Assembly (NCBI GenBank): GCA_937936355.1
Contig: CALDDM010000008.1
Location: 19,454-83,453 of the forward strand
From: Minisyncoccota bacterium
GTDB taxonomy: Bacteria; Patescibacteriota; Minisyncoccia; Moranbacterales; GCA-2747515
Reading direction: 5' to 3'
DNA length: 64,000 bases
In this document: positions 3,410 through 43,591 of the stretch, piece after piece
Layout of the letters: every line of letters begins with the position of its first letter
Position numbering within the stretch: position 1 is the first letter of the stretch
The notes under the pieces: model-generated
The model's database searches: none
Told to the model about the DNA's origin: nothing
What the model saw: the letters and a program-made list of their open reading frames with translations, nothing else
Translations under genes and position numbers: made by a program

Positions 3410-3434
3410 ACTAATTCGTTATTTCCATTAACAC

Positions 3435-3656
3435 AAAAACTCGTCCTCACAAATTCAAAACTTTGAATTTGTCAGGACGAGTCTCACAACCCGCGGTTCC
3501 ACCTGACTACCCAACCTCTATTCTACCTTCAGAGATCAAGCGCTCAATTGATATTTTTAGCCCCAAAGCACGTTCCACGGTGCGCTACACAACTACTATA
3601 CCAGAAATCTTTCCTGCAGGTCAAAATCACCAAACCAAAGCAGGCTAATCAATATC
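3435..3656 (-). promoter_or_regulatory. T-box riboswitch leader of glyQS (Stem I, T-box sequence, terminator/antiterminator)
   Basis: All elements are on the minus strand. The T-box core CAGGUGGAACCGCGG lies at 3491-3505. A terminator, ACUCGUCCUGACAAAUUCAAA / UUUGAAUUUGUGAGGACGAGU followed by UUUUU, spans 3435-3482. GUCAGG (3501-3506) can alternatively pair with CCUGAC (3471-3476) in the terminator 5' arm, giving an antiterminator. The base of Stem I is GAUAUU-GA-UUAGCC / GGCUAA-A-AAUAUC. Confidence 0.8.
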
Positions 3657-3687
3657 AGACAATGAATCAAGTTCTCAATACTGCACA

Positions 3688-4443
3688 TCACTCTTTACGC
3701 ATGCCGATAACAGCGAGCATAGCATCATGTGAGTCGCCTTGATGACGTCGAGCACTAAAGAACCTCTCGTCTGCATATGTGCACTCCCTACAGTTTTGCA
3801 CATTATCAAGTGGCACACCAGCCTCTGTAATCTGATCACCGAGAATTGCCTGCAAATCAACGGTAATCTTATCAAGAGTTGATCCCTTATCAATATACTT
3901 ATCCTGGGAGTACGGTCCGAACTCCTTGATCATTTCACTATAATGAAATTCAAAATTTGCTTGCGATATCCCAGGTCCAAACTCAATATGGATATCCGCA
4001 AATTTTGACCCTTGCGCAACCATAGCCTCAATAGTCCTAGGAATAATCTCCTTAACTGTACCACGCCAACCAGCGTGCGCGACACCGCAAACACCGGCAA
4101 CGGAGTCAAAAAAATACACAGGAAAACAATCAGCAACTGTTATCCCCACAAAAACACCCGGCTCTTTCGTGATCAGTGCATCAAATGCCCGGTGAAGAGG
4201 CTCGTCCTCTGATGTAATCACGGCCACAGAGGTCCCATGCGTTACATATCCATAATAAAAATCATTATAATCCACTCCTATGCTCTGAAGAAAATTTTTA
4301 TGATTCTCTTTTGTTTGCACATCCTCATCCGTATCGCGCAACTTCATATTGCCTGCACCAACGAGAGATAGTGCACCAATCACTTCAGAATTCTGAGGAA
4401 AAATTTTAAGCGACGTTAGTTGTTCTGCTGCTTGTAATGTCAT
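3688..4443 (-). CDS. pgeF: peptidoglycan editing factor PgeF (YfiH/DUF152, laccase-domain protein)
   Basis: 251-aa ORF containing TVADCFPVYFFD and GVAHAGWRGT motifs characteristic of the YfiH/PgeF family. Confidence 0.85.
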   Translation of the reverse strand: MTLQAAEQLTSLKIFPQNSEVIGALSLVGAGNMKLRDTDEDVQTKENHKNFLQSIGVDYNDFYYGYVTHGTSVAVITSEDEPLHRAFDALITKEPGVFVGITVADCFPVYFFDSVAGVCGVAHAGWRGTVKEIIPRTIEAMVAQGSKFADIHIEFGPGISQANFEFHYSEMIKEFGPYSQDKYIDKGSTLDKITVDLQAILGDQITEAGVPLDNVQNCRECTYADERFFSARRHQGDSHDAMLAVIGMRKE

Positions 4444-4642
4444 ATTCTGTAATATTATGAATTTTCACTATGCCTATAAACTGCGATTCTGAATTCTATC
4501 TCATATATCTTACTATACCATCCAAAGAAAAGGAATATACGGATCTGCCTTGACAAGAGATACGATATGCAGATAGTGACAATATAGGGAAATTTGCATA
4601 TACCGGGTCGCACAATACAAATATCTGCGATATGATGACCAT

Positions 4643-5787: not shown

Positions 5788-8222
5788 ACTGATTCATTTT
5801 CATAACGACTCTTAAGGTCTGCATAAATTTTCTCATAATCTGGAATATTAGCCATAAAAATCTCAACACCATCACTACCAACAGTGTGAATCGTTACATT
5901 GCCATTGCCAAAGATCTTTCCAACAAATCCCTGCGTTTTGTTGATAAAGTTTATACGCTCATTAAGTACAGACGTCTCCCTCTTATAAAAGATCCCACTA
6001 CGCGCAATCACACGACTCTGTGTGACAACATATGATCGCATGCGATTGTCAACAACAACAAAGCCTACAATCATCACAATGAGGACAAACGCAACCACTG
6101 CACCTGACACGATACCCGCTGCAATGAACCCAAAAGCAACAAGGCCCAAGAGTATGATTGGCACAAGCATTGGCAACAATGCATTTTTAACATCTGGATG
6201 TGAGATAGACAACACTTCATCCGCAAGATCTCCAGAGAGATCTTGCGGCAAACCACCATCACGCACTAACTTTTGCAAAAGGAAATTTGCATTTATATTT
6301 TCTTGTGCGATGTGGTTTATGAAATCTAAACGAAAAATATGAGAAGAAAATACTGGACCATGCTTATTAAGTCCCCGCCCAGATGCTTCCTGCGTCATTG
6401 CATCGCCAGCGATATTGAGTTCCATCCACCCCTCCTGTGAGAGAGGATATCGCTCAATGACTATATCTTTGATGCCATTATATGGAATATAGTAATATCG
6501 TTTCCACAAAAAACCTTTCTGCGCATAAATATGTGACCACAAAAAATCAATCCGCGCCAACAGATAATAATAACGATTATACAAAACAACAATAATTGTA
6601 AAGATCAGATGCGCCACTGCGATCATGCCAACAACAGCCAAGACCTCCGTTGCACCGTAGGCCACAGCTAAGACAATGATGATACCATATGCCAATGCCA
6701 TAACAAGTGCCAAAAAGGCGTTTGACTTCACCCATGCGAGAATGTTGTAACGAGATCTAGCGCTGTGCACAATATCATTATGCATCCCAAATTTTTCCCT
6801 AATACCCGTCAGAGCTTCGTCATAGTCACGGATATTTTTAAATTGCAGCACATGATGCGATCCGATCGAAAGGAAATCAATAGTTGCAACGCCAAACCAT
6901 TTCTGAATGACATTCTGCCTAACTACCACACCAGTTACCTTCTCCAAATTAAACTCAAGCACCTGCTTGGTAAGAAAATTAAATCGTGACTCCACACCAG
7001 CCTTCTTAAGGCTGTATGTATGTGTCTTGCTATAAAGGACCGCATAGATACTACCAATAAGCAAACCAACAATCACGAAAGCAATGACACCAGATAAACC
7101 TGTGCCAGCAACTACTGCTACCACGCCCAGGACAAGACCAATCAGAACTGTGCCGATAGCACCTGGCACAAACTGATACCACATATCTGGCTGCGTCACA
7201 AGCTCAAATTCTGATTGTGGCTGCAAACGATGTGATACATCCTCACTTTGGACAACGCGCTCTGACATCTGACCTTCTCGAACGAAATTCCCTCCATTGT
7301 CCCTGGTTTGCATGATGAGATCATCAAGTACCTCACTTACTTTTTGACCGTTTGCAAGATTCTTAAAAAAGATCTGGTGCCCCGAGCCTTTTCCGCTTAC
7401 CTTCACATCGTAAAGCCCAAAAATCTTATCCACAAATGTTTGTGTTACCTCTGTATCAGAAAGATTTTGATACGGTATGATAGTGTAATTTTTACTAAGA
7501 AATCCTTCACTATAAACAATGACATTGCGATAAATCCCATAAATTCGCTTACGCAGATCCAGAAAATTCAGAAACTGCCAGGCAATGAGCGCGCCGATAG
7601 AGCCTGCACCTACAATAAGACCAAATCCCAAACCTTTACTAGAAATATAACTCAAAACAGTTTCTAGGACATCGGATGCTACATAAAAAATTAATCCAAT
7701 AGCACCAAGAAAATTTTTAAATACCTCGAAAAAGATTGCCAAACTATGCGGCCTCTCCTCAAGGAGCAACTCACCTGTATCAAGTGAAATTCCTTGCGCT
7801 TTCATTTGCTCCTGAACCTGTGCGAAAAGTTCACGCGGACGATCTACCTCCGCAAAGTGAATCTCCGCAGCACGAGAGCCAGCCGATTCTACATCAATTT
7901 TCCCTGTACCAAAGAGCCTGTATTGGACAAAAGGTAGTCGCAATGATACATGTGTGACATTTTTCAGAAGTAGCTCATTTTCCTGATCGGTGAATGGTGT
8001 TCCTGAGCGTTGCGTGATTTTCTCTGCCTCAAAATCATAAATACGCTTTGCATATTCTGTACGCACATACCAATATGCAACGCCAACACAAAATAACCCC
8101 AACACAAATGGCACAATCGAGCCAAAGACAGACGATATGATCGTCGCAATAATCACACACAAAAGCACTACGTACATCATGCGCATTACGATAAAAGCTC
8201 TTTCTTGTGGTTTAATCGTCAT
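5784..8222 (-). CDS. YdbT-like membrane protein with five tandem [TM hairpin + bPH/DUF304-like] modules
   Basis: 812-aa ORF with five repeats of two hydrophobic helices followed by a module of about 80 aa. Examples are RSGTPFTDQENELLLKNVTHVSL...GTGKIDVESAG and RSGIFYKRETSVLNERINFINKTQGFVGKIFGNGNVTIHT. Confidence 0.8.
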   Translation of the reverse strand: MTIKPQERAFIVMRMMYVVLLCVIIATIISSVFGSIVPFVLGLFCVGVAYWYVRTEYAKRIYDFEAEKITQRSGTPFTDQENELLLKNVTHVSLRLPFVQYRLFGTGKIDVESAGSRAAEIHFAEVDRPRELFAQVQEQMKAQGISLDTGELLLEERPHSLAIFFEVFKNFLGAIGLIFYVASDVLETVLSYISSKGLGFGLIVGAGSIGALIAWQFLNFLDLRKRIYGIYRNVIVYSEGFLSKNYTIIPYQNLSDTEVTQTFVDKIFGLYDVKVSGKGSGHQIFFKNLANGQKVSEVLDDLIMQTRDNGGNFVREGQMSERVVQSEDVSHRLQPQSEFELVTQPDMWYQFVPGAIGTVLIGLVLGVVAVVAGTGLSGVIAFVIVGLLIGSIYAVLYSKTHTYSLKKAGVESRFNFLTKQVLEFNLEKVTGVVVRQNVIQKWFGVATIDFLSIGSHHVLQFKNIRDYDEALTGIREKFGMHNDIVHSARSRYNILAWVKSNAFLALVMALAYGIIIVLAVAYGATEVLAVVGMIAVAHLIFTIIVVLYNRYYYLLARIDFLWSHIYAQKGFLWKRYYYIPYNGIKDIVIERYPLSQEGWMELNIAGDAMTQEASGRGLNKHGPVFSSHIFRLDFINHIAQENINANFLLQKLVRDGGLPQDLSGDLADEVLSISHPDVKNALLPMLVPIILLGLVAFGFIAAGIVSGAVVAFVLIVMIVGFVVVDNRMRSYVVTQSRVIARSGIFYKRETSVLNERINFINKTQGFVGKIFGNGNVTIHTVGSDGVEIFMANIPDYEKIYADLKSRYENESV

Positions 8223-8803: not shown

Positions 8804-8870
8804 TGCTCAAAACCTCTTTTTTAAGTGAGCTTTCAAACTACCAAAAGGCTGTCATAAAGTCAAGAATATC

Positions 8871-9385: not shown

Positions 9386-10777
9386 TTACACGTTGTGGAC
9401 GTGGTAAATATCGCCAGCTCCAAGTGATATAAAAATATCATCCTCAGTAAGTTCCTGGGTGATGTGCATTTTGAGCGCATCCGTGTCCGGGATGTGGCAG
9501 GCCTTGCTGCTCACGCCTTGATTTATAGCATCGACAAGGCTTTGCGCTGATACCGGTGCATAATCCTCCCGCCTCTCTCTATCCACAGCATAAATATCAA
9601 GTACTATAACTTCATCTGCCATATCAAGAGCTCGAGCAAATTCCTCAAGAAGGGTTGCCGTACGTGAATGGGAGTGCGGATGAAATGCCACGATAACTTT
9701 ACGATCAGGATACACTTCCCTCACGGTTGCAAGTGTTGTACGAATTTCTTCAGGATGATGTGCATAGTCATCAATCATGACAGCGCCATTGAGGGATAGG
9801 TGACGCTCAAAACGACGCGCGACACCTTGGTATGAGGCCAAACCAGCGGCGCTTTGGTCTACCCCTTCTTCCCCTGCAGACGCTTTTCCCCCACCAACGA
9901 TCTCCCTGCTCATCGTCCAAGCTGCAATTGCATTGTATGCATTATGTCTCCCCGGCAAGTGCGTCGCAATAGCATAAACATTATCGCCATCTTTTTTGCA
10001 AAGCACATCAATTTCTTGTGTACCATCGGCAACATACGAACGATCAAGTAACTGCACATCTGCATCCACATGATCGCCATATGTCAGTACTGTACATGGT
10101 AACGTGACGTTATCATCAACAAGAATCTGCCAGGCATCATGCGCTACAACCAACACACCAATACGTGGAATTCTTTCGACAAAGTCTACAAATGCTTTTT
10201 TGTACTGGGAAAAATCAGCAAAGAAGTCTGGATGATCAAAATCAACACTCGTCAAAATAACTGCCTGCGGATGATAGTATTGTAATTTATTCTGATATTC
10301 ATCAGCCTCAAAAACAAACTCTCTACCAGCGCCAAAACGACTACCACCATCCCAACCAATAACTGGTGCGCCAATCAATGCATTAATATCACGCCCACCC
10401 CCCAGCAAGGCATGTGCAAGCATGCCAGTGGTCGTTGTCTTTCCATGTGTGCCACAAACTGCAACACTATAGTACTCACCAGTGATCTGACCGAGCGCCT
10501 CAGGATATGTTAGAACTTTCACATTCCTACGAAGGGCCTCTGCAATTTCGACATTTTCTTGATTGTAAGCAGTTGAATGAACAATGAAATCTTCGTTTCC
10601 AATGATATGTGACGGATCAAATTTCTCATGCACTGTAATATCATGCGCTGCGAGCGAATTACGATAGAAGCCATCTCCTTCATCTGAGCCAGAAACACTA
10701 TAGCCACGAGCCTTATAAAGCCGCGCAAGCGCTGATGTCCCTGCCCCCTCAATACCGACAATATAAATTTTCTCCAT
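9386..10777 (-). CDS. murC: UDP-N-acetylmuramate--L-alanine ligase
   Basis: 463-aa ORF. N-terminus reads IYIVGIEGAGTSALARLYKARGYSVSGSD, and the Mur ligase P-loop is GTHGKTTTT. Confidence 0.95.
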   Translation of the reverse strand: MEKIYIVGIEGAGTSALARLYKARGYSVSGSDEGDGFYRNSLAAHDITVHEKFDPSHIIGNEDFIVHSTAYNQENVEIAEALRRNVKVLTYPEALGQITGEYYSVAVCGTHGKTTTTGMLAHALLGGGRDINALIGAPVIGWDGGSRFGAGREFVFEADEYQNKLQYYHPQAVILTSVDFDHPDFFADFSQYKKAFVDFVERIPRIGVLVVAHDAWQILVDDNVTLPCTVLTYGDHVDADVQLLDRSYVADGTQEIDVLCKKDGDNVYAIATHLPGRHNAYNAIAAWTMSREIVGGGKASAGEEGVDQSAAGLASYQGVARRFERHLSLNGAVMIDDYAHHPEEIRTTLATVREVYPDRKVIVAFHPHSHSRTATLLEEFARALDMADEVIVLDIYAVDRERREDYAPVSAQSLVDAINQGVSSKACHIPDTDALKMHITQELTEDDIFISLGAGDIYHVHNV

Positions 10778-16722: not shown

Positions 16723-19563
16723 TTAAATAACAATATTAATAAGCTTTCCTTTAATCACAATAATCTTACGAATCTCTTTTTCTCCTATGAATTTTTGCAC
16801 TTTTTCACTTGCAAGGGCGATTTTTTCAAGGGCCGCGTCATCCTGACCCGCTGCAACCGTGACCTTGTCACGCACCTTGCCACCGATCTGCACAATAAGT
16901 AAGATCTCATCTTCCACAAGGAGCGTTGCATCTACCTCTGGCCACTGCACTTTTGCAACATAGCCATCATGACCAATACCCTCCCAGATCTCCTGTGCAA
17001 CATGTGGTGCATAGGGCGCAAGCATCGTTACCAAAAGCGTCATGTGCTCCTTGGTTATAGAAACCTCTTTCTCGAGCACGTTAATCGTACCCATAAGCGC
17101 TGAAACTCCGGTGTTGAGTTTATAATTCTCTATACTCGCCGTTACTGTATCAAGTGCTTTATGCAGTGCCTGGTCAGAAGCCTTCGTGCCGCCATCACCC
17201 ACCTTCTCCTGCAACTTCCAAATACGCTCAATAAATCGCCGTACACCGATGATGCTTTGCGGGTTCCATGGATAAGAGCTCACCTCATTGTACGGACCAA
17301 CAAAAGCCAAATACAAGCGCATCGTGTCTGCTCCAAGCTTCTCAACAATATCATCAGGATCAATCACATTGCCCTTACTCTTGCTCATCTTGTTTCCGTC
17401 TGGTCCTAGAATCAGACTACGGTTCATACGTCGCGTATATGGCTCTGAAGACGGTACCAGCCCAAGATCATAAAGTGCCTTCGTAAAAAAACGTGAGTAC
17501 AAAAGGTGCATCGTCGTATGTTCAGCGCCACCACTATAATGATCGATTGGCATCCACATTTTTAACTTTTCCATATCAGCAAAAGACTCCACGTTATCTG
17601 GATCGCAGTAACGCAAAAAGTACCACGAGCTACACATAAATGTATCAAATGTATCTGTTTCGCGCTGTGCATCCTTGCCGCATTCTGGACACGACACATT
17701 TACAAAATCCTCATTCTTAGCCAGAGGTGATCGCCCATCATCATTTGGGAGATAATCTTCCACATCAGGCAACTCCACAGGCAATTGCGCATCAGGTACA
17801 GCGATTGGGCCACAGTCATCACAGTGAATAATCGGGATCGGTGCACCCCAGTATCGTTGTCGACTGACTGTCCAGTCCCGCAACTTATACGTCGTCGTAA
17901 TCTCACCACCAACTTTCTCTACAATAGCCTTTTTTGCCTCTTCACTCTCCATCCCATCAAATTCACCTGAATTGATCATCACTCCATCCTTAGCAAAAAC
18001 CTCTCTTTTAACATAAGTATCCAATAGCAACATCATAACCTCCCCCTTCTCCTTATTGACCTGCTTCTTTATTGCAGCATCAATTTCATCATAAGTCATC
18101 CACTTTGAAACCATCTCATCATCCTTCTCTACCTGCGTCATCTTTATTTCCACCCTTTTTTTCGAACTTAAAGAGACCGCAAACGCGTGACACACGTTAC
18201 GACGAGTCTTTTTCTTTGTGTGAGAATATTGATCCCACACAACTACCGACACCTTATTCCCATTCACAAAATCAGAAAATCCAGTTTCCTCAACTACCTC
18301 TCTTTCAAGAGCCTGCTCCAAACTCTCCCCATCTTCAACCGTACCTCCTGGCAACCAATATTCATCCACTCTCTTCGAATACTGAATCAAAAATTTACCT
18401 TCATTATTTTGAATAATCCCATAAGATCCAACTTTTTCAAGATCAATACTTGCAATTTCTCCGACTTTTTTTGCGACAACATGCCTTACAGGAATATCAT
18501 ACTTCAGAGCAAACGCCTGATCACGTTCATCATGCGCAGGAACCGCCATGATCGCACCTGTCCCATAATTTCCCAAGACGTAGTCTGCGACATAGACTGG
18601 AATCTCCTCATCGTTTGCGGGATTGATTGCTTTTATACCTTCCAGTAAAACGCCTGTTTTTTCCTTAGTATCATTAGTACGGTCGATTTCTGATTTCTTT
18701 GCTGATTCTGCCACATAATCCCGCACTGCTTTTATGTTGGGAATTTTTTTTTCGAGATTCTGAATAATCTCATGTTCAGGTGCTACTACCATATACGTCA
18801 CACCATAAAGCGTATCAGGTCGCGTCGTGAAGACTTTTAATTTATAATCTTCGCCAGATATCTTAAACTCAAGCTCTGCACCCTCACTGCGACCGATCCA
18901 ATTTTTTTGAGACATCTTGATATCCTGAGGCCACTGTACGTCATCAAGATCATCAATCAATCGATCAGCATACTGTGTAATACCAATTTGCCACTGCTTC
19001 ATCTGACGCTTTTCTACGGCACTATCACAGCGCTCACATAAGCCACTCACAACCTGCTCATTAGCAAGTACAGTCTTACACGATGGACACCAATTTGCAT
19101 CGACACCACGGTGCTCTGCTAGACCGGCCTTGTAGAGCTGGAGAAACAGCCATTGCGTCCACTTATAGTACGCAGGATCACACGTGACCACTTCTCGCGA
19201 CCAATCAAACGACGCTCCCATAGAACGCATTTGCATACGCATGTGATCCATATTTTCATACGTCCAATCACGTGGATTGACACCACGCTTGATCGCAGCA
19301 TTTTCTGCTGGTAATCCAAATGCATCAAATCCAACAGGATACAGAACATTATAACCTTTCATGCGCTTATAACGTGCAACGATATCTGGCATAGCAAATG
19401 CATACCAGTGACCGATGTGGAGATTGCCTGAGGGATACGCAAATTCGAAAAGCTGATAAAAATTCTCTTTTCCCTGTGCGATATCTTGGGTCTCATAGAC
19501 ACCATCCTCGCTCCATTGCTTTTGCCATTTTTTTTCAATTTCACCGTGCTCGTAACGTTCCAT
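16723..19563 (-). CDS. leuS: leucine--tRNA ligase with an inserted Nudix domain
   Basis: 946-aa ORF. It has the HIGH region YPSGNLHIGH, CP1 editing motifs TTRPDT and GTGAIMAVPAHDERD, RDWTVSRQRYWGAPIP, and KMSKS. Confidence 0.95.
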   Translation of the reverse strand: MERYEHGEIEKKWQKQWSEDGVYETQDIAQGKENFYQLFEFAYPSGNLHIGHWYAFAMPDIVARYKRMKGYNVLYPVGFDAFGLPAENAAIKRGVNPRDWTYENMDHMRMQMRSMGASFDWSREVVTCDPAYYKWTQWLFLQLYKAGLAEHRGVDANWCPSCKTVLANEQVVSGLCERCDSAVEKRQMKQWQIGITQYADRLIDDLDDVQWPQDIKMSQKNWIGRSEGAELEFKISGEDYKLKVFTTRPDTLYGVTYMVVAPEHEIIQNLEKKIPNIKAVRDYVAESAKKSEIDRTNDTKEKTGVLLEGIKAINPANDEEIPVYVADYVLGNYGTGAIMAVPAHDERDQAFALKYDIPVRHVVAKKVGEIASIDLEKVGSYGIIQNNEGKFLIQYSKRVDEYWLPGGTVEDGESLEQALEREVVEETGFSDFVNGNKVSVVVWDQYSHTKKKTRRNVCHAFAVSLSSKKRVEIKMTQVEKDDEMVSKWMTYDEIDAAIKKQVNKEKGEVMMLLLDTYVKREVFAKDGVMINSGEFDGMESEEAKKAIVEKVGGEITTTYKLRDWTVSRQRYWGAPIPIIHCDDCGPIAVPDAQLPVELPDVEDYLPNDDGRSPLAKNEDFVNVSCPECGKDAQRETDTFDTFMCSSWYFLRYCDPDNVESFADMEKLKMWMPIDHYSGGAEHTTMHLLYSRFFTKALYDLGLVPSSEPYTRRMNRSLILGPDGNKMSKSKGNVIDPDDIVEKLGADTMRLYLAFVGPYNEVSSYPWNPQSIIGVRRFIERIWKLQEKVGDGGTKASDQALHKALDTVTASIENYKLNTGVSALMGTINVLEKEVSITKEHMTLLVTMLAPYAPHVAQEIWEGIGHDGYVAKVQWPEVDATLLVEDEILLIVQIGGKVRDKVTVAAGQDDAALEKIALASEKVQKFIGEKEIRKIIVIKGKLINIVI
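18010..18441 (-). other. Nudix hydrolase domain embedded in LeuRS (aa ~375-518)
   Basis: A perfect Nudix box GX5EX7REUXEEXGU is present as GTVEDGESLEQALEREVVEETGF (aa 407-429, nt 18277-18345). It lies inside an extra segment of about 145 aa between YDIPVRHVV and GVMINSGEFDG. Confidence 0.8.
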
Positions 19564-19626
19564 AGCGCATAATTTCTTAAGATCTCACAATAACAGGTAA
19601 TCCTATCATATCCCGATTAAGCTTCC

Positions 19627-19664
19627 AAATCAAACAAAAGGAGCGTTGACGATATCAACACTCC
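19627..19664 (-). terminator. rho-independent terminator
   Basis: On the minus strand, GGAGUGUUGA-UAUCG-UCAACGCUCC (one mismatch) is followed by UUUUGUUUGAUUU. It lies downstream of the ORF ending at 19768. Confidence 0.65.
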
Positions 19665-19767
19665 AAAATGAAAGCTGTCGCAACTTTCTTTTTTTCCAAT
19701 ACACAGGAATTCTTGTATATGCGACAACTCTTATCAATTTAGTAAAACCTCTACAAATTACTATGCC

Positions 19768-20157
19768 CTACGATTTTCTCACAGGTAGCAGCTTCTTCTT
19801 ATATGCAGCGATACGCTTATAAAAGCCAACAGAATCCCACCACATAAGGAAGGAAGAATTTTTTTCGCATTCTGCTTGCTCATAATCATTGTGTGCACCA
19901 TCCGTGTCAGCACTTTCTTTCAGTTCATTTCCCACATCTTGTTGCGCCCTATCCAGAGACATTACATGCTCCGTATGCATCTTTGCAAGCGCTGTAAACA
20001 GCGTCGACTCTGGAAAGCGGACATAATCATTCAAGTCTATGACCCGTCGATACTCAGACTCACAATCAAGATCTAACTTAAATCGGAAAAGCATCGCATT
20101 GAGCTGATGTAAACCAGGCTCAAAAGCGTGAACCGACCGATGTATATTTTTTTTCAT
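19768..20157 (-). CDS. hypothetical protein
   Basis: 129 aa counted from the ATG at 20157 (MKKNIHRSVH...); the ORF track begins 13 codons earlier. It has its own terminator. Confidence 0.55.
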   Translation of the reverse strand: MKKNIHRSVHAFEPGLHQLNAMLFRFKLDLDCESEYRRVIDLNDYVRFPESTLFTALAKMHTEHVMSLDRAQQDVGNELKESADTDGAHNDYEQAECEKNSSFLMWWDSVGFYKRIAAYKKKLLPVRKS

Positions 20158-20240
20158 ATTAAACCACCTATTTTGGAGGTGAAAAGATAATAACAAATAA
20201 ATTAATATTTGTCAAACAATCACACCTTTCAATTCCCTCA

Positions 20241-20277
20241 CTCAAAAAGTAAAAAGCAGTCCTTATGTATAAAGAAC
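20241..20277 (-). terminator. rho-independent terminator
   Basis: On the minus strand, GCAGUUCUU-UAUACAU-AAGGACUGC is followed by UUUUUACUUUUUG. Confidence 0.65.
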
Positions 20278-20329
20278 TGCTACAAATTGGCCGCAAGAAC
20301 ACACACTGCGAACCTTTCTAATTAAGAGA

Positions 20330-20566
20330 CTATACCCACGATGGCCTCTCTCCCTCGGGCCACCTCCCAAATAAAAGCACGAAACTTCTTACAGTCTGTT
20401 CAATCTGTTCAATTGTATGCTCAGGATAATTCCACAACATCTCACAATGCACAACTCTGATCAAACCCCAGTCAACATCTAACTGACTAGGAGGAGGCAA
20501 AGACCTATTTTTTTCTATAAGCTTACGTATCTCAAGGCTATTTGCCGATACATTCTCAGAAGTCAT
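20330..20566 (-). CDS. hypothetical protein
   Basis: 78-aa ORF with its own terminator. I recognised no motif. Confidence 0.5.
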   Translation of the reverse strand: MTSENVSANSLEIRKLIEKNRSLPPPSQLDVDWGLIRVVHCEMLWNYPEHTIEQIEQTVRSFVLLFGRWPEGERPSWV

Positions 20567-20622
20567 CCACTTAACCCTCGAAATAAAAAGAACCTAAAAA
20601 AGAATAACATAGAATCGGCAAA

Positions 20623-20640
20623 AGATAGAAGACCTCAAAA
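20623..20640. terminator. hairpin terminator after the permease gene
   Basis: AGACCTC-AAAA-GAGGTCT forms a 7-bp stem flanked by T-rich sequence on both strands. Confidence 0.5.
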
Positions 20641-20675
20641 GAGGTCTTTTATCTATTTTCTCATGGAAGTTGCGC

Positions 20676-29259: not shown

Positions 29260-30204
29260 TTAGTGATCATGTGCGGTCGTTGCTTGCTTGACAAAGAATA
29301 GCGTCAGCAAAGCAAAAACAGCAGCTTGCAAGACACCTACACCCATCTCAAAGAGCATGATTGGAACAGGAAACGGCACAGGAATCTTGATCCAATCAAA
29401 TACAATTCCCTGCAGAGTAATCGCCAAAAGCACAATAATCTCACCCGCAAAGATATTTCCAAACAAACGAAACGATAGAGAGATGAGGCGCGCAAGCTCA
29501 CTAATGAGCTCAATAATCCCTACAAAGAAATTAATCGGTGACGAGAAATTGAAGAAGTTACCCAGGTACTTCATACCTTGCGTGCGAAATCCCATAAACT
29601 CTATAAACACAAATGAGATAATCGCCAACCCAAGCGTCATGTTGAGATCTGCATTTGGACCACGCAACAGATGAAGAATTTTCTCCTTGCCACCCTCTAA
29701 CTCTTTGACAATCTCTACAGAGCCAACCCCCGGAATGAACTCAATCCAATTCGCCACCAAGATATACAGAAACAGTGTCGTAATCAGCGGAAATGCAATT
29801 GTTGTTACACGATCATTACCCAGGATCTTACTCATCTCATCGTGAATATAACCGACAAGACTCTCAAAGAAGATCTGCAACCTCCCCGGCACGCCAGTAG
29901 TCGTAATCCGGCGACCAACAAAAAAGGCGACACCTATCAAAACAAGAGAAGCAATCACTGACGTAACAAGCGTGTTGGAAATCATAAAATTTCCAATCTG
30001 TGCGATGTTGTCTGGTATAAAAACAACATGAATCGGACTATCTGCATGACCTGCAGCATGCGTCGCACTGTCAGTAGCACCATATAATTGGGTTGACACA
30101 TCTTGACTATGCGCATCTGCGGGACCAACGCCACCAGAAACAGTTCCCTGCTCTAGCTGTGGAAAGCGCTCAAGATTTTCTGTGATAACTGTTGGTTCTG
30201 CCAT
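29260..30204 (-). CDS. atpB: Fo ATP synthase subunit a (long N-terminal extension)
   Basis: It contains the conserved LSFRLFGNIFAGE (essential Arg). The start is either the ATG at 30204 (MAEPTV...) or the one at 30267. About 90 aa precede the first TM helix. Confidence 0.9.
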   Translation of the reverse strand: MAEPTVITENLERFPQLEQGTVSGGVGPADAHSQDVSTQLYGATDSATHAAGHADSPIHVVFIPDNIAQIGNFMISNTLVTSVIASLVLIGVAFFVGRRITTTGVPGRLQIFFESLVGYIHDEMSKILGNDRVTTIAFPLITTLFLYILVANWIEFIPGVGSVEIVKELEGGKEKILHLLRGPNADLNMTLGLAIISFVFIEFMGFRTQGMKYLGNFFNFSSPINFFVGIIELISELARLISLSFRLFGNIFAGEIIVLLAITLQGIVFDWIKIPVPFPVPIMLFEMGVGVLQAAVFALLTLFFVKQATTAHDH

Positions 30205-30398
30205 TTCCAAATAAGTAGTGAGCCGACTATAAAAATGCGGTACACTTGCTAGTGAATTACGCAGCATTTAAACCCATATTTTCACAACAAACGTCGCTAT
30301 GGCCACAAGGAAAGAGCGAAGTGCTCATCACAGGCGCAAATATCAACCATTAGCGTTAATTTGTCCCCTCTATATGAGTTCAAATGAACCACACCTCT

Positions 30399-30426
30399 AG
30401 TATACAGAAAAAATGATTTTTCGCAA
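30399..30426 (-). promoter_or_regulatory. candidate atp operon promoter TTGCGA-N16-TATACT
   Basis: On the minus strand, the -35 hexamer is at 30421-30426 and the -10 hexamer at 30399-30404. The promoter immediately follows the upstream terminator. Confidence 0.4.
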
Positions 30427-30458
30427 GAAAAAAAGGAGGTCCGCTTCGCGAATCCTCC
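30427..30458 (-). terminator. rho-independent terminator of the lipoprotein gene
   Basis: On the minus strand, GGAGG-A-UUCGC-GAA-GCGGA-CCUCC (10 bp, one bulge, GAA loop) is followed by UUUUUUUC. Confidence 0.7.
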
Positions 30459-30498
30459 CCTCCCCTGCACGGGATATCAACTATCAACAATAAACGAG

Positions 30499-31035
30499 TC
30501 AGCACTCAGTCTGGCGTATAGTACGACCAGCCATCGGTAACCACTTACTATTTTGGTAAACAGTAAAGGTACTCTCACCCCCTGGCACACCAAGACAAAG
30601 CATCCGATATTTTTTTGCCAGATCATTAAGTGGATGGTGCTCAGAAAAGCTCACACTCCCATAAATCAAATGGCACTCATATGGATTTTGTCTGTTATAT
30701 CGATCTCCAAATTGCACATACACTGCAATATTCTTGGCGGTTTCAAATCGAGAAATATTTGACCACTCCGGCGTAGTCCAGCCTGCCATACGCATTTTTC
30801 CACTTGGCTTTTTCACTGGATGGCGATCAAGAAATGGCCGGGATAGTCCTGGACACGCACCTTTCTTGACGAGATGCATTCCCGACTCAGGCACTGCCCG
30901 CACAGGACTCCTTTCATATAAATCATCAGCTACCGCAGGTGGCGGTACCAGCACCACATGATCAACTGCACATCCCGACAAAAAAACCACTGCCATAACC
31001 AAGCCGCACATGATATCTCTTATACGATTTTTCAT
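30499..31035 (-). CDS. orphan lipoprotein
   Basis: 178-aa ORF with a signal peptide and lipobox (VVFLSGC|AVD). GGGGAG lies 5 nt upstream of the ATG, and the gene has its own terminator. I recognised no family motif. Confidence 0.75.
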   Translation of the reverse strand: MKNRIRDIMCGLVMAVVFLSGCAVDHVVLVPPPAVADDLYERSPVRAVPESGMHLVKKGACPGLSRPFLDRHPVKKPSGKMRMAGWTTPEWSNISRFETAKNIAVYVQFGDRYNRQNPYECHLIYGSVSFSEHHPLNDLAKKYRMLCLGVPGGESTFTVYQNSKWLPMAGRTIRQTEC

Positions 31036-31211
31036 TCTTACTCCCCATCTGTAAAGTTGCTGTACCTAATATGTACTAACAAAAGCCTACTACAGAGGAC
31101 TAACTTCGTCAATAAAAGAGAGATAAATAAAAAAAGCAACTCAAAAAAGTAACTCATTAGATCAACGCGTGAACCTCATAATCATCACAAAACTCAGCGA
31201 TCATGTCATTA

Positions 31212-31247
31212 TACAAATTAAAATGCGCAGCAAAAGATTTGCTGCGC
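31212..31247 (-). terminator. rho-independent terminator of the secreted-protein gene
   Basis: On the minus strand, GCGCAGCAAA-UCU-UUUGCUGCGC forms a 10-bp stem followed by AUUUUAAUUUG. Confidence 0.7.
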
Positions 31248-31270
31248 ACCATGCCGCTATACCGTGAAAA

Positions 31271-31894
31271 TCAACTCCTTCTGGGACAAGATAAAAGGTA
31301 AGCAAATGTCCCGCCACCGTCAGATGGATTCTTGAAATAATCTCGTTGCCACAGAAGAACCTTCGGCCCGCTCCATGCCTGGTACTCAGCTCGAGTGACG
31401 CCAGTGTACTCAACATTTGCCACACTTTCATGGACATCCGGGCAGATAAATTCCAAAGTCTTTATCTGGTCGTCAGCATACCCATCTGTAAAACCGGTAT
31501 TACCGGTGATCTTCAAGCAAAGACGAGAGCCATTAGGTATCTTATTGTGTTCATAGAACACAAGCGATGACTCCACCCTTTTAAGTCCCTGCGACTCAAT
31601 CGCCGTCGCATTGGACCAGATTGTTTGATAACCATCAAGCTGTGGCTCATCAGGTCGAGCGGTCCATCCATGCAGAACGCTAAACCTGTAGCGCTTTGCT
31701 TCCGGTGTAATGCCCCACTCACCGGGCAGCGTCACCGACTGAGTCACACACTCTCCAGCTACAACACTCAAGTGAGGATTATCCTCAATCGAATGGTGAA
31801 AAATATCAATGCCAGTGCGATCATGCGCGTTAGCACCAGCACTACAAAAGATAATTGATGCAACACTCACAGTCTTTAAGATTATTTTGAACAT
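31271..31894 (-). CDS. orphan secreted protein (predicted mature N-terminus His)
   Basis: 207-aa ORF. The signal peptide MFKIILKTVSVASIIFCSAGANA|HDRTG has an AXA cleavage motif. GGAGG lies 6 nt upstream of the ATG, and the gene has its own promoter and terminator. Confidence 0.8.
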   Translation of the reverse strand: MFKIILKTVSVASIIFCSAGANAHDRTGIDIFHHSIEDNPHLSVVAGECVTQSVTLPGEWGITPEAKRYRFSVLHGWTARPDEPQLDGYQTIWSNATAIESQGLKRVESSLVFYEHNKIPNGSRLCLKITGNTGFTDGYADDQIKTLEFICPDVHESVANVEYTGVTRAEYQAWSGPKVLLWQRDYFKNPSDGGGTFAYLLSCPRRS

Positions 31895-31954
31895 GACATA
31901 CCTCCACAGGTTTTGTCAGAATAAAAGAAGAACATCAGTTTTTAAACCAAATGC

Positions 31955-31983
31955 ATTCTATCACATATATTCATTATAGTCAA
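31955..31983 (-). promoter_or_regulatory. promoter TTGACT-N17-TAGAAT (with TGn extension)
   Basis: On the minus strand, the -35 hexamer is at 31978-31983 and the -10 hexamer at 31955-31960, about 55 nt upstream of the ATG at 31894. Confidence 0.5.
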
Positions 31984-32085
31984 TAGACACGCATAGAAAA
32001 AAATTACACGACTCAACCCCTGACGCACAGTCAGAACCGCCAAGAAACAATCTTTCCATAAATTGAGTGATTTAGTTTAAATTAT

Positions 32086-32113
32086 AAAAAACCGGCCACA
32101 CAGTCGTGACCGG
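32086..32113 (-). terminator. rho-independent terminator of the small-ORF operon
   Basis: On the minus strand, CCGGUCAC-GACUGU-GUGGCCGG (one mismatch) is followed by UUUUUUAUAAUUU. Confidence 0.65.
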
Positions 32114-32159
32114 ATTCTATTTCAGATTTTTTTTGCTTTTAATGCATCTAACCAGTTAC

Positions 32160-32246
32160 TCAGATATCTACTAGTGTACACTCAACACAAGAGATCGCAG
32201 TTAGAAATATGTAACCCCAAACAAAGCTATCCAAGAGATCCTTCAT
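32160..32246 (-). CDS. candidate 28-aa hydrophobic micro-ORF
   Basis: The peptide is MKDLLDSFVWGYIFLTAISCVECTLVDI. Its ATG lies 8 nt after the stop of the 60-aa ORF, with no SD. It is below the ORF-track cutoff and was translated by hand. Confidence 0.3.
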   Translation of the reverse strand: MKDLLDSFVWGYIFLTAISCVECTLVDI

Positions 32247-32254
32247 CGTTGCAA

Positions 32255-32437
32255 TTATTTCTTCCTGCCCTTTAAAACAAGAAACAACAACAGAAAAAAG
32301 CCAAATGTAACAAGCGCCAAAAAGTTTGGATCTTCTGTGATTGGCATGTGATGGTTTGCATATGCACTCGGGGCAAAAATTACTATGCCGCAGAGAGAGA
32401 AAATCCTTCCTTCTTTTTTACTTTTTATATTATTCAT
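32255..32437 (-). CDS. 60-aa two-TM membrane protein with basic termini
   Basis: The peptide reads MNNIKSKKEGR-[IFSLCGIVIFAPSAYA]-NHHMPITEDPN-[FLALVTFGFFLLLFLVL]-KGRKK. AGGA lies 4 nt upstream of the ATG. Confidence 0.55.
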   Translation of the reverse strand: MNNIKSKKEGRIFSLCGIVIFAPSAYANHHMPITEDPNFLALVTFGFFLLLFLVLKGRKK

Positions 32438-32443
32438 TGTGTC

Positions 32444-32707
32444 CTATCCAGGCGCGTAGATATTCGCTGCCTTGCAGGCAGCGATCGTACCCTGATCCCA
32501 TGACACGCCATACATGAGATAGTATGATTCTATTGCGATCGCCTCAGGCGTCAGCAGATAAATATAGCCATGTAGTGATAGAAACGCTAATCTATACATG
32601 CTATTTCCAAAAACACTACAAAACGCAGAGTACGAATGAGCAACCTCCATCCCTAGCAAATAAACGTCATGACAAATAATCTGATCGATCCTCACCGTCA
32701 TATGCAC
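32444..32707 (-). CDS. hypothetical 87-aa protein
   Basis: This is the only long ORF in any frame here. It ends 7 nt before the 60-aa ORF. I saw no SD and no recognisable motif. Confidence 0.4.
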   Translation of the reverse strand: MHMTVRIDQIICHDVYLLGMEVAHSYSAFCSVFGNSMYRLAFLSLHGYIYLLTPEAIAIESYYLMYGVSWDQGTIAACKAANIYAPG

Positions 32708-32848
32708 TCAAGCAGGCTGCGATGATGTGAATCCAGATATTTTCTTCTTTTTCACTAACCTTTACTCCGTGGATTTAAATTGTAAATATACTATTACCAT
32801 CGATCATAATCGACAGAAAGCACATTAACACAAAATTATTTTTCAGTC

Positions 32849-32880
32849 AAAAAACTAATGTGCAACACTGTGCACATTAG
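32849..32880 (-). terminator. rho-independent terminator after the 27-aa micro-ORF
   Basis: A perfect 10-bp inverted repeat CTAATGTGCA-N6-TGCACATTAG is followed on the minus strand by UUUUUU. Confidence 0.65.
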
Positions 32881-32896
32881 CTCAAAAACTACGCAA

Positions 32897-32980
32897 TCAC
32901 GACCCCGCCAAATGAAGAAAGCAGCTCGCTACAGCGAGGACCAATAGGCCCTCATTTATCAGATTGTCCAACGAAGCCAT
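32897..32980 (-). CDS. candidate 27-aa hydrophobic micro-ORF
   Basis: The peptide is MASLDNLINEGLLVLAVASCFLHLAGS. GGAG lies 12 nt upstream, and the unit has its own promoter and terminator. The transcript could instead be a non-coding sRNA. Confidence 0.35.
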   Translation of the reverse strand: MASLDNLINEGLLVLAVASCFLHLAGS

Positions 32981-33017
32981 AATACACTAACTCCAAACAG
33001 GCAAAATTGCCTCTTCA

Positions 33018-33077
33018 AATATACAAAAAATTGTCTCCAACGTAAATATTGACAGATTCTATATAATAATGTAAAAT
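33018..33077. promoter_or_regulatory. back-to-back divergent promoters
   Basis: The minus-strand promoter is TTTACG (33041-33046)-N17-TATATT (33018-33023). The plus-strand promoter is TTGACA (33049-33054)-N17-TAAAAT (33072-33077). The two -35 boxes are 2 nt apart. Confidence 0.45.
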
Positions 33078-33114
33078 AAAAAATAAATACACAAAAAGCG
33101 AGAGCAAAGTGGAA

Positions 33115-33234
33115 ATGTCAGTATATGATAATCAGGGGCGTGGCAAAAACCCACGTCAATCATCCATTAGAGAAATTATCATCGTCACACTAACTATAAT
33201 TGCGTGGGCAGCAGTGATCTCGCAAATAACCTGA
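33115..33234 (+). CDS. candidate 39-aa single-TM micro-protein
   Basis: The peptide is MSVYDNQGRGKNPRQSSIREIIIVTLTIIAWAAVISQIT. It has a promoter upstream and a perfect hairpin 10 nt downstream. It was translated by hand. Confidence 0.4.
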   Translation: MSVYDNQGRGKNPRQSSIREIIIVTLTIIAWAAVISQIT

Positions 33235-33243
33235 GGTTTAACA

Positions 33244-33268
33244 GGCCACGATCCATTAGATCGTGGCC
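33244..33268 (+). terminator. hairpin terminator
   Basis: GGCCACGATC-CATTA-GATCGTGGCC forms a perfect 10-bp stem. The following U-tract (UUAAC) is weak. Confidence 0.5.
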
Positions 33269-33364
33269 TTAACACTTTACAAAAACCGACTAAGAGCATT
33301 AAGACAAACCACACGATTCATCACAGAAGTCACAACGATAAATACAACCAAACCAAAATCAGAT

Positions 33365-34243
33365 CTACTTTTGCAGTGAAAAGAAAGCACGTGTCGTTTT
33401 TGCAGTACTTTCGATTATTTTCTCTGCAGAGACATCTTTTAGATCCGCTATTCTGCGTGCAACATATTGCACATACCGAGGATCGTTTCGCTTACCACGG
33501 TGCGGGGCGGGCGTCAGATATGGTCCGTCTGTCTCAATCATCACACGATCGAGCGGGATCATTTTTATCACCTGACTCATCTGATCATCATCAGACTTAC
33601 TATATGTCACATTTCCCGTAAATGAGAACGTGACGTTATCCATATCAAGAAACTCCTTCGTCACTGACACATTACCCATGTAACAGTGCACAACAAACCG
33701 CACGTCAGGATAATCAGCAATGATACGCGCACAATCAACGTACGCATCACTCGCTGCCACATCTAGTGGCCTACAATGCACAACAACAGGCAATCCTATC
33801 TTTCGTGCAAGTGCAATCTGCACAACAAAACCTGTTCGTTGCCACTTTTTTTGCGCAGTACTTACAACCACTTCACCAGGGAGAAAATAATCCAAACCAA
33901 TCTCCCCAATCGCAACAACTTTTTTTTCAGTAGCCATCCCCTCTATTTCCTCAACAGATCTCTTCAAATTTTGCATACGCACATCCTCAAGACTATCCGC
34001 ACCCATACCCTCTGCCCACTCAGCGTCTCTTTTGGGGCCACCATTAAAAACATGGGGATGCATACCCACAACAGCGTAAATATTTTCATATTTCTTAGCA
34101 ACATCCAATGCCTGTTGCGATTCGCGCACGCTTGTACCTATATTGATCATCGACTCACCACCATGATCAAAAAACGCGGCAACAACATCACCACATTCAT
34201 CACCATACTTCTTATCATGCAAGTGTATATGAGCATCAATCAT
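33365..34243 (-). CDS. tatD: TatD-family metal-dependent hydrolase/DNase
   Basis: 292-aa ORF with N-terminus MIDAHIHLHD and conserved GEIGLDY, VVHCR and ETDGPYL motifs. Confidence 0.9.
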   Translation of the reverse strand: MIDAHIHLHDKKYGDECGDVVAAFFDHGGESMINIGTSVRESQQALDVAKKYENIYAVVGMHPHVFNGGPKRDAEWAEGMGADSLEDVRMQNLKRSVEEIEGMATEKKVVAIGEIGLDYFLPGEVVVSTAQKKWQRTGFVVQIALARKIGLPVVVHCRPLDVAASDAYVDCARIIADYPDVRFVVHCYMGNVSVTKEFLDMDNVTFSFTGNVTYSKSDDDQMSQVIKMIPLDRVMIETDGPYLTPAPHRGKRNDPRYVQYVARRIADLKDVSAEKIIESTAKTTRAFFSLQK

Positions 34244-34280: not shown

Positions 34281-34808
34281 TCAAACTACACCAAGGTCAC
34301 CAAGAAAATCGTAATAGATACCTACCGCCTCTTTTGCTTGTTCATGTGCAATACTCATATCATCATCGTGAACAATCTGATTACGAAAAGCATGGACACT
34401 GTGCAACACATCAGTAGCGTCATACATATCTGCATCAATCTGAGCCAATTGCATACCAAGATTCTCCCCCTCATACCCAACCTCAGACATTGACATATGC
34501 AAAAGATGTTCAGCTTCAAGAACTGCAATCTTCCACTCTGCTGGTGAATCAGTATCGAGTCTATCCATTACACGCTTCCACTCCCGTTTACGCTTGCCAC
34601 CACTCTCACTTATACCAGAAACTCCATACTTCATACTGCGCATGCGCGCCCGCACGTTACCAAGATACATCAGCAGCAAAACGTCTATAATCAAAATAAC
34701 AGCATAGATACCCAAGAGGATCCGCACAACAAGAAAAAAGGTACTGTTCCAAAAAGCTTGAAAGTACGTCTGTATACTAGGTATAAAATTGACGATAAAA
34801 TCCTCCAT
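34281..34808 (-). CDS. hypothetical membrane-anchored protein
   Basis: 175-aa ORF with one N-terminal TM segment (FFLVVRILLGIYAVILIIDVLLLMYL) and an acidic helical C-terminal domain. Confidence 0.65.
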   Translation of the reverse strand: MEDFIVNFIPSIQTYFQAFWNSTFFLVVRILLGIYAVILIIDVLLLMYLGNVRARMRSMKYGVSGISESGGKRKREWKRVMDRLDTDSPAEWKIAVLEAEHLLHMSMSEVGYEGENLGMQLAQIDADMYDATDVLHSVHAFRNQIVHDDDMSIAHEQAKEAVGIYYDFLGDLGVV

Positions 34809-43216: not shown

Positions 43217-43591
43217 TTAACAACCTGCTGGGAAATTTGCTCCTGTCTGGTCAATAGTTGTACCAGCACACACCGCCTCAACATTTGCATTAGCAGCAGT
43301 TGAAGTAATTTGGAAATCTCCACCATTACAGTCAGAGCCAACTGCAATCGTTGCAACAGAAAGCATATCTGTTTGCTGAGCTGCAACAAATGCTGCAAGA
43401 TCAGGTGTAGCCTCATCACACTCGAGAATACCACCAGCTGAAAGACTTGAAACAGATGATTTGTAAGCTGCAACATTAGCCTTTGTACGCGCACTGTTCA
43501 GAGAGACCAGAACAATAGACGCCAAAATTCCGATGATTGCAATTACGATCAAAAGCTCGATCAATGTAAATCCTTTATTCATTTTTTTCAT
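43217..43591 (-). CDS. pilA: major type IV pilin
   Basis: 124-aa ORF with MKKMNKG|FTLIELLIVIAIIGILASIVLVSLNSAR and C-terminal Cys pairs. A strong SD (AAGGGAGGTGA) lies upstream and a dedicated terminator follows. Confidence 0.9.
   Translation of the reverse strand: MKKMNKGFTLIELLIVIAIIGILASIVLVSLNSARTKANVAAYKSSVSSLSAGGILECDEATPDLAAFVAAQQTDMLSVATIAVGSDCNGGDFQITSTAANANVEAVCAGTTIDQTGANFPAGC

Follow-up and report, generated by a model that had tools for sequence, protein, structure and literature searches.

Accessory-gene hotspots, or plasticity zones, differ in content among related genomes while the core genes on either side stay constant. In the Patescibacteria, the candidate phyla radiation (CPR), most of the enriched families are membrane or extracellular proteins that lack annotation and are thought to function in cell-cell interaction, and a CPR-enriched MdbA-like disulfide oxidoreductase has been described (Meheust et al. 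2019, PMC6744442). Here we analyze a locus that recalls both: positions 30427 to 33268, between tatD and atpB, of a 64,000-nucleotide (nt) piece of patescibacterial DNA, which we call the window. AtpB homologues place the host near Paceibacteria/Parcubacteria lineages. The stretch encodes two exported proteins of 207 and 178 amino acids (aa). We lean, with some reserve, toward the reading that it is a lineage-specific plasticity zone that formed in situ at an operon boundary and carries a fast-evolving exported family, represented here by two copies.

The tatD-atpB gap is 3097 nt long, against a median spacer of 67 nt in the window. The stretch takes up 4.8% of the window's length but holds 1936 of its 8009 intergenic nt (24%), which bears out the long spacers reported by the initial annotation. 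We compared the contigs of the closest AtpB relatives (L002/L003, L009, L005/L006, L011, and L008). In L002/L003, with an AtpB 82% identical to that of the window, gene order equals the window over about 20 kb, and both share the arrangement ligA-gatC-gatA-178-aa homologue-tatD-...-atpBEFHAGDC-CBS-ArsB-leuS; the L002 178-aa protein between gatA and tatD is 70% identical to a 175-aa protein of the window. tatD closes this conserved ligA-gatC-gatA-175aa-tatD block. Flanking proteins are 66 to 90% identical to their L002 counterparts; TatD is 66 to 70% identical to that of L002, L005, and L009, and AtpB is 82% identical to its closest relative.

The contents of the gap are another matter. L002 has a gap of 852 nt with a single 176-aa secreted protein, L002_176. 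In L009 (AtpB 76%), the gap is 578 nt and has no open reading frame (ORF). In L005/L006 (AtpB 69%), it is 2170 nt and carries 65-, 141-, and 163-aa ORFs. L011 (AtpB 68%) has an unrelated ORF fragment in the gap, and L008 (AtpB 57%; GCA_020629675.1, JAHDCW010000003.1) has no tatD at that place. There is no DNA similarity between relatives inside the gap; only the tatD and atpB ends align. Relatives thus share tatD and atpB and not what lies between, so the stretch is not a conserved core. In L005, the ancestral tatD terminator, whose homologue in L009 immediately follows tatD, is found about 780 nt past the gene, so the 65- and 141-aa ORFs were inserted ahead of it. Given this insertion and the gap contents across relatives, the tatD-atpB junction is a site of recurrent gain and loss. 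A tatD scan of the genome contig collection gave no further relatives; atpB alignment recovered just two close species among genome contigs, and metagenome contigs gave distant loci only.

This is the sense in which the "secretome island" of the initial annotation holds up: content is variable between conserved flanks, and the main products are exported. The signs of a mobile island are lacking. We found no significant direct or inverted DNA repeats bounding the stretch, no tRNA near it (the sole tRNA of the window is at 62577), and no integrase or mobility genes in it; no ORF of the stretch matches any family in Pfam, NCBIfam, or PHROGs.

Both large proteins carry export signals that can be read from the translations. 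The 207-aa protein begins with MFKIILKTVSVASIIFCSAGANA followed by HD, which comprises the n, h, and c regions of a signal peptide and an A-x-A cleavage motif (ending ANA/HD, with the slash at the cleavage site); its mature part has four cysteines, C49, C126, C151, and C203. The 178-aa protein begins with MKNRIRDIMCGLVMAVVFLSGC. Here, the charged residues K2, R4, and R6 are followed by a hydrophobic core and then by L-S-G-C22, which fits the lipobox pattern [LVI][ASTVI][GAS]C, the criterion for substrates of Lgt and LspA. Its further cysteines are C61, C121, C147, and C178. We propose that the 178-aa protein is lipid-anchored and that the 207-aa protein is released or loosely attached. Both are real genes and not noise, because they are 178 and 207 codons long and their codon scores exceed those of all 41 spurious out-of-frame ORFs.

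Neither protein matched a family in Pfam, NCBIfam, PHROGs, or PADLOC, so profile searches assigned no mundane housekeeping family to them, and a word-indexed search of 5.8 billion protein clusters returned self matches only. Phage records searched in protein mode held no match for either protein, viral contigs none for the 178-aa protein, and plasmid records none for the DNA of the whole stretch. With tblastn and tblastx, no paralogues of the stretch products were found in 1.8 Mb of Patescibacteria atp neighborhoods and the rest of the window. PDB sequence searches with three family proteins and a profile gave nothing useful. The products had been called orphans, which is right as far as family libraries and clusters go; the two large ones do have weak positional homologues in sister lineages.

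These homologues are what suggests a family. We aligned mature sequences by the Smith-Waterman (SW) method and scored them against 2000 shuffles. The 178-aa protein and L002_176 gave an SW z of 6.5, with 0 of 2000 shuffles scoring as high. The 207-aa protein gave a z of 4.3 with L002_176 and 3.2 with L006_163, the 163-aa protein of L006, while unrelated control proteins stayed near zero. A profile of the 207-aa protein and L006_163 put L002_176 first among 10747 six-frame segments (E 0.14), and a profile of the 178-aa protein and L002_176 put the 207-aa protein fourth (E 3.4). When the two profiles were aligned with hhalign, they shared the motif C-x-x-I-[YT]-G...F...[ND]D-x-x-K-x(4)-C at an E value of 0.0045. 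Three cysteines align in the 178-aa protein, the 207-aa protein, and L002_176, with a C2-C3 spacing of 26, 25, and 25 residues, respectively, and in all three the last cysteine is no more than 5 residues from the C terminus. The signal peptides of the 207-aa protein, L002_176 (..SSAFA/HT), and L006_163 (..SAALA/HD) have in common the ending A-x-A/H-[DT].

Three results weigh against a single family. The hhalign probability for the pairing above is just 7.7%; the 178-aa and 207-aa proteins compared directly are not significantly similar (SW z 1.0); and a three-member profile does not retrieve the 178-aa protein. On balance, we consider it likely that the two proteins and the secreted proteins of the sister lineages form one family. 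The 178-aa protein would then probably be paralogous to the 207-aa protein and correspond in position to L002_176. If so, the tandem pair goes back to a gene present once in L002, the copy nearer to atpB acquired the lipobox, and identity within the family has fallen to about 25% while the neighbors stay at 66 to 90%. The global alignment of the 178-aa protein with L002_176 is 25% identical, and so is the 116-residue local alignment of the 207-aa protein with L002_176.

From this we can sketch how the zone may be built. It would lie where one conserved transcription block, ligA-gatCA-tatD, ends and another, the atp operon, begins, and would carry rapidly diverging proteins that are Sec-exported, contain cysteines, and are probably rich in beta structure, possibly of the FN3/Ig-like kind. 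Copy number at the position would be none or one in the sister lineages and two in tandem here, one predicted to be lipid-anchored and the other released or loosely attached. Each copy appears to be a monocistronic unit with a strong Shine-Dalgarno (SD) site, rare in this genome, and its own intrinsic terminator, which would allow expression independent of the flanking operons, probably at a high level. The remaining ~1.5 kb (31895 to 33364) would be mostly non-coding, with a plausible 60-aa membrane protein and a structured RNA. We infer a cell-surface or host-contact function for the exported family, and its rapid divergence could reflect relaxed or diversifying selection.

The terminators fit this picture. 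Each family gene whose 3' flank we examined (those for the 178-aa protein, the 207-aa protein, and L002_176) is followed by its own strong hairpin terminator, which for L002_176 lies ahead of atpB. Together, the terminators in the window and in L002 support real, separately expressed genes with a shared regulatory style. SD sites point the same way. An SD-like core precedes only about 5 of the 55 window genes, whose upstream regions are otherwise A+T-rich. About half of Parcubacteria have no anti-SD motif (PMC9297842), and the few SD sites of the window fit this reported loss. The exceptions include a type IV pilin gene (43217-43591, GGGAGG) and both large genes of the stretch (Table 1). The relatives have GGAGG before L002_176, GAGG before L006_163, and GAGGG before L005_141.

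The same SD sites can be read as a mark of foreign origin. In this alternative, the stretch is a horizontally acquired islet in which foreign 178- and 207-aa genes, with donor-type SD sites and TGA stops, would have entered between tatD and atpB. The closest relatives lack the stretch although its flanks are conserved, and both large genes end in TGA, the rarest stop in the window (7 of 55 genes). Their full codon scores are below those of every other minus-strand gene. These low scores and rare stops, which count against an origin in situ, leave room for an external one. The base composition is less telling. The initial annotation had judged the two larger genes to be G+C-richer than their neighbors. 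Their G+C contents, 0.460 for the 178-aa gene and 0.473 for the 207-aa gene, are within the range of window genes (mean, 0.433; standard deviation, 0.024; maximum, 0.476), and, overall, the stretch has no elevated G+C content (0.455, 0.426, and 0.395 per kb). What stands is that the G+C content at third codon positions of the 207-aa gene (0.452) is just above that of all 54 reference genes. Synonymous codon usage is low in the 207-aa gene (z -1.84) and typical of the genome in the 178-aa gene (z -0.26). The codon deviation of the pair is mostly amino acid composition, with Cys, Trp, His, and Pro enriched as expected for exported proteins. Composition thus neither proves nor excludes a foreign origin. 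Other evidence argues against the islet. There is no integrase, tRNA, or direct or inverted repeat at the borders, and neither the 5.8 billion clusters nor the phage, plasmid, and viral collections held a donor-like sequence. Weak homologues with the same SD and signal-peptide features occupy the same position in two sister lineages, and the native pilin gene has a strong SD as well. We consider acquisition from outside unlikely.

A possible lead to the fold comes from the 207-aa protein. An exhaustive HMMER search of 1.8 billion proteins gave one match, P0128, a protein with three near-identical FN3 repeats (E 8e-7). The alignment, covering residues ~66 to 154 of the 207-aa protein, takes in the strand-B Trp, a WSN...ES...YEH run, and the strand-F region; the proteins are exported, as are bacterial surface proteins with FN3/Ig-like domains (PF00041), and their low-confidence models are mostly beta. 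There are points against this lead. The E value is inflated because the same segment of the 207-aa protein matches each repeat. One repeat taken alone yields an SW score of 82 (z 11, p about 4e-7 for each comparison), short of significance in a search of 1.8 billion proteins. Independent support comes only from L006_163, whose alignment to that repeat spans the full domain (z 4.1, p 0.003); for the 178-aa protein and L002_176, similarity to the repeat is not significant. Pfam fn3 (PF00041) did not match the 207-aa and 178-aa proteins at E<=1, nor did it match L002_176 and L006_163, and the family proteins have no sequence relatives in PDB. AlphaFold2 single-sequence models, with predicted local distance difference test scores of 29 and 35, show scattered strands and are too poor to use. 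Typical FN3 domains lack the C-terminal extension of the family and its three to four cysteines. We regard an FN3-like beta-sandwich at residues ~66 to 154 of the 207-aa protein as an evenly balanced call.

A bolder version of our reading would make tatD-atpB a dedicated "contact-protein" hotspot. It would harbor an undescribed, highly expressed family of exported proteins of beta-sandwich fold that have three to four cysteines, strong SD sites, and private terminators. The family would diversify by duplication, by switching between anchoring and secretion, and by sequence turnover (orthologues at ~25% against 70 to 90% for the neighbors), as expected for episymbiont host-recognition or adhesion molecules under diversifying selection, and the adjoining DNA would add a new structured RNA or small-membrane-protein unit. 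In so complete a form, we find the idea doubtful.

Table 1. Features of the tatD-atpB stretch and its borders (window coordinates).
Feature	Position	Strand	Remarks
atpB (F0 subunit a)	29260..30267	-	Pfam ATP-synt_A 3.9e-44; first gene of the atp operon, downstream boundary
Promoter-like site TTGCGA-16-TATACT	30399..30426	-	9/12; just downstream of the terminator of the 178-aa gene; candidate atp operon promoter, consensus match only
Intrinsic terminator	30428..30465	-	GGAGG..CCUCC + UUUUUUU; dG -24.8 (51-nt context), z -3.7; after the 178-aa gene
178-aa lipoprotein-type protein	30499..31035	-	Lipobox L-S-G-C22; SD GGGGAG; TGA stop
Intrinsic terminator	31220..31252	-	13-bp stem; dG -18.8, z -3.5; U-rich tail; 19 nt after the 207-aa gene
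207-aa exported protein	31271..31894	-	Type I signal peptide; SD GGAGG at -11..-7; TGA stop
Promoter-like site TTGACT-17-TG-TAGAAT	31955..31983	-	10/12, extended -10 TG; about 60 nt upstream of the 207-aa gene; consensus match only
Intrinsic terminator	32087..32118	-	Stem CCGGUCAC/GUGGCCGG + UUUUUU; dG -16.9, z -4.5; closes the 87/60/28-aa stretch
60-aa candidate small membrane protein	32255..32437	-	Signal-peptide-like N terminus ..APSAYA/NHH, short linker, C-terminal transmembrane segment, KGRKK tail
87-aa (GTG start) / 85-aa (ATG start) ORF	32444..32707	-	Doubtful coding status
Structured RNA candidate	32845..32990	-	146 nt; encloses 27-aa ORF (32897-32980); ends in U-tract terminator
Intrinsic terminator	32852..32883	-	Hairpin + UUUUUU; ends the structured RNA candidate
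Promoter-like site TTGACA-17-TAAAAT	33049-33077	+	11/12 consensus positions; best of the stretch
Candidate opposite-strand mini-unit	33049..33234	+	Promoter-like site, then 41/39-aa ORF (33109/33115-33234), ending at the palindromic hairpin; speculative
Palindromic hairpin, perfect 12 bp	33243..33269	-	About 100 nt after tatD; no U-tract, not scored as a terminator
tatD	33365..34243	-	Pfam TatD_DNase 1.2e-68; upstream boundary of the variable zone

The rest of the gap looks different. The ORFs of the stretch (178, 207, 87/85, and 60 aa, plus micro-ORFs of 27 to 39 aa) are where the initial annotation had put them, but its statement that every product is exported or membrane-embedded applies, by sequence reading, to the 178-, 207-, and 60-aa products and fails for the 87-aa ORF. 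The ~1.47 kb from 31895 to 33364 contains no convincing gene. The 87-aa ORF has neither an SD site nor a signal peptide, and its codon score is -0.06 against the composition null, with a synonymous z of -2.2. The 60-aa ORF was also called as a gene independently on a Logan assembly. Both are in one frame, parted by a TAG and two codons (32438-32446), and could be a split gene or a coincidence. We rejected read-through of this TAG, a common stop here (21 of 55 genes). The opposite-strand 41/39-aa ORF has a hydrophobic C-terminal segment, the worst codon score, and no homologues. Neither the 87- nor the 60-aa ORF matches Pfam, NCBIfam, PHROGs, or PADLOC, and in the relatives' atp neighborhoods we found no homologues or conservation of the 87-, 60-, and 27- to 39-aa ORFs. 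There is no support for coding by the 27-, 28-, and 39-aa micro-ORFs, and T-rich spacers yield hydrophobic pseudo-peptides.

Could the whole stretch then be mostly non-functional, decaying intergenic DNA, with ORFs that are dying or due to chance and hairpins that are operon terminators and leftovers? Codon scores are near zero against the composition null for all ORFs of the stretch, which fits this view, as do the 1.47 kb without a convincing gene, the unconserved small ORFs with a frame split by TAG, and promoter-like sites at chance level. However, chance is very unlikely to have produced frames of 178 and 207 codons that each come with an SD site, a signal peptide or lipobox, conserved cysteines, and a terminator of their own, and relatives have weak homologues. 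Reduced Patescibacteria genomes seldom retain 3 kb of junk, which also counts against decay. We therefore hold this explanation to be quite unlikely.

All five hairpins that had been proposed are real when compared with dinucleotide shuffles, with a folding free energy (dG) of -17 to -25 kcal/mol and z scores of -3.5 to -6.6, and four have a U-tract. The exception, the hairpin at 33243-33269, folds about as well on one strand as on the other, with a dG of -21.5 (z -6.6) on the minus strand and -20.1 (z -8.1) on the plus strand. Strong intergenic hairpins are modestly enriched in the stretch (7 of 21 in 24% of the intergenic DNA). We rejected an integron-cassette arrangement of ORF plus hairpin: the hairpins are ordinary GC-stem/U-tract terminators, mutually unrelated, and no integrase is adjacent. 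The stretch has 27 promoter-like sites, against 24.2 +/- 4.1 expected in shuffled sequence. Sites at chance frequency mean that the near-consensus promoters carry no weight. The claimed mosaic of autonomous transcription units survives in that each large gene has its own terminator, but its promoters are at chance level.

One part of the non-coding DNA could have a function of its own. The region 32845-32990 folds at a dG of -55, versus -37 +/- 3.4 kcal/mol in shuffles (z -5.25), the strongest local z in the sliding scan. This raises the possibility of a regulatory or non-coding RNA locus, with a ~150-nt structured RNA acting as a small RNA or as the leader or attenuator of the small ORFs downstream. 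A promoter-like site (33046-33018) and a U-tract terminator accompany the structure, and the 27-aa ORF is buried in it. On the other hand, the z score owes partly to the terminator hairpin itself, no homologous sequence was found anywhere, and Rfam gave no match for the candidate at E<=5. The best Rfam match in the region is a eukaryotic long non-coding RNA model (E 1.1), and with Rfam 15 only one tRNA reaches the gathering score over the window. An RNA locus would be compatible with the plasticity zone that we favor; taken by itself, it is an improbable account of the stretch.

The initial annotation had also expected toxin/immunity pairs or a degraded lysis module here. In such a scheme, a toxin/antitoxin, toxin/immunity, or lysis module would be made of small hydrophobic peptides, for example, the plus-strand 39/41-aa peptide (33109-33234), which is antisense to tatD read-through. 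Small ORFs with hydrophobic segments do occur, and the best promoter-like site is on the opposite strand, with a hairpin after it. The expectation found no support, however, as searches of PADLOC, PHROGs, and phage, plasmid, and viral-contig collections gave nothing; the PADLOC and PHROGs scans covered five minus-strand ORFs (178, 207, 87, 60, and 175 aa) and left out the micro-ORFs and the plus-strand peptide. There is no phage similarity, and nothing is conserved in relatives. T-rich intergenic DNA gives hydrophobic pseudo-peptides by default, and the plus-strand ORF has the worst codon score. A module of this kind is highly improbable.

The stretch is not an assembly artefact, since a 16-kb sequence including it was assembled independently from run ERR9287626 (Logan assembly). 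The second assembly (L001) is identical. The window has ~42% G+C and a GC skew that is negative throughout, and nearly all of its genes are on the minus strand. The host lineage is poorly sampled, given that even tatD forms a singleton when about 15 billion proteins are clustered at 90%. At the other border, the longest atpB ORF (335 aa, start at 30267) is probably too long and the true start is probably 30204, because most relatives begin at an M-x-E-P motif there; one relative, P0010, has a comparable N-terminal extension.

Several observations concern the surroundings of the junction. In L005, a 43-nt palindromic element has three copies in 21 kb (2624-2666, 8812-8854, and 9743-9785), and it is also present in L006 and L007. 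Two inverted copies flank the 163-aa secreted-protein gene, and the element may be a REP-like repeat or form the arms of an invertible or mobile segment. A mobile cassette or invertible element was rejected for the window, from which this multi-copy palindrome is absent. A 129-aa bAvd/23S_rRNA_IVP-like gene interrupts the atp operon between atpG and atpD (L005 15555-15944; L007 6678-7067), and past atpD in L005 (17406-19125) there are further small ORFs, among them a partial one that is atpC-N-like. In L008, a large serine recombinase and a Rep-like gene (2317-4641) are found ~5 kb ahead of atpB, and opposite-strand 883-aa and 205-aa ORFs precede its atpB; this suggests that a mobile element lies close to the same junction. 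L002 has an orphan 131-aa ORF (7609-8004), which the window lacks, between its 175-aa homologue and tatD. A run of 10 residues is common to this ORF and our 207-aa protein (GYSDDQITDL versus GYADDQIKTL; SW z 2.2), by chance or as a family remnant.

In the window, the unannotated 175-aa protein between gatA and tatD (34281-34808, minus strand) has an N-terminal membrane segment and no Pfam match. It is unlike the genes of the stretch in its native codon usage and its 70% identity to the L002 protein. A second orphan junction of 1112 nt (19564-20675), between an ArsB/CitMHS-type transporter and leuS, has 142- and 78-aa ORFs without family matches and three terminator-like hairpins; in L002, the same junction is only ~104 nt. 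Expansions therefore occur at several operon boundaries in this genome. The adjacent leuS (16723-19563, minus strand) encodes a 946-aa leucyl-tRNA synthetase with a NUDIX hydrolase domain (PF00293, residues 382 to 504; E 5.8e-15, passing the gathering score) whose insertion point is at or within the editing domain. This unusual fusion has the same architecture in L002.

If our reading of a plasticity zone with a fast-evolving exported family is true, the locus is the place at which a reduced bacterium that probably depends on a host maintains and renews its surface repertoire. Its fixed address between tatD and atpB would make it easy to find and compare across related metagenome-assembled genomes. 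The strong SD sites retained by a few exported proteins, the pilin and this family, hint at a separate translation regime for surface proteins.

How does this locus compare with known systems? Patescibacteria commonly have exported proteins without annotation as well as small junctions of variable content, and we demonstrate no new mechanism here. The short ORFs with a single hydrophobic segment, and the possible antisense arrangement at 33049-33269, are like those of type I toxin-antitoxin and small-membrane-protein loci. Unlike those loci, the stretch has no family match among the five minus-strand ORFs scanned, no conservation, and no good codon scores, and this is resemblance only. FN3/Ig-like proteins likewise match in part, but the fn3 model and PDB found nothing, and the 178-aa and L002 proteins have no FN3 signal. 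The CPR-enriched families (PMC6744442) offer another comparison. The proteins described here are small, unannotated, and exported or membrane-bound, and they belong to a putatively episymbiotic lineage; the cysteine-containing secreted ones fit with an MdbA-like disulfide oxidoreductase. Those families are widespread across the CPR, whereas this one is confined to a few close genomes and is a singleton at 90% clustering. Accessory-gene hotspots provide a further parallel. Here, too, the flanks are constant while the content differs among relatives (0, 1, 3, or 2 to 4 ORFs), and turnover is by insertion, as seen in L005 between tatD and the ancestral terminator. Unlike in those hotspots, the zone here is very small (0.6 to 3 kb), is not marked by mobile-element genes, a tRNA, or repeats in this genome, and has a content that appears to be partly related by descent and not independently acquired.

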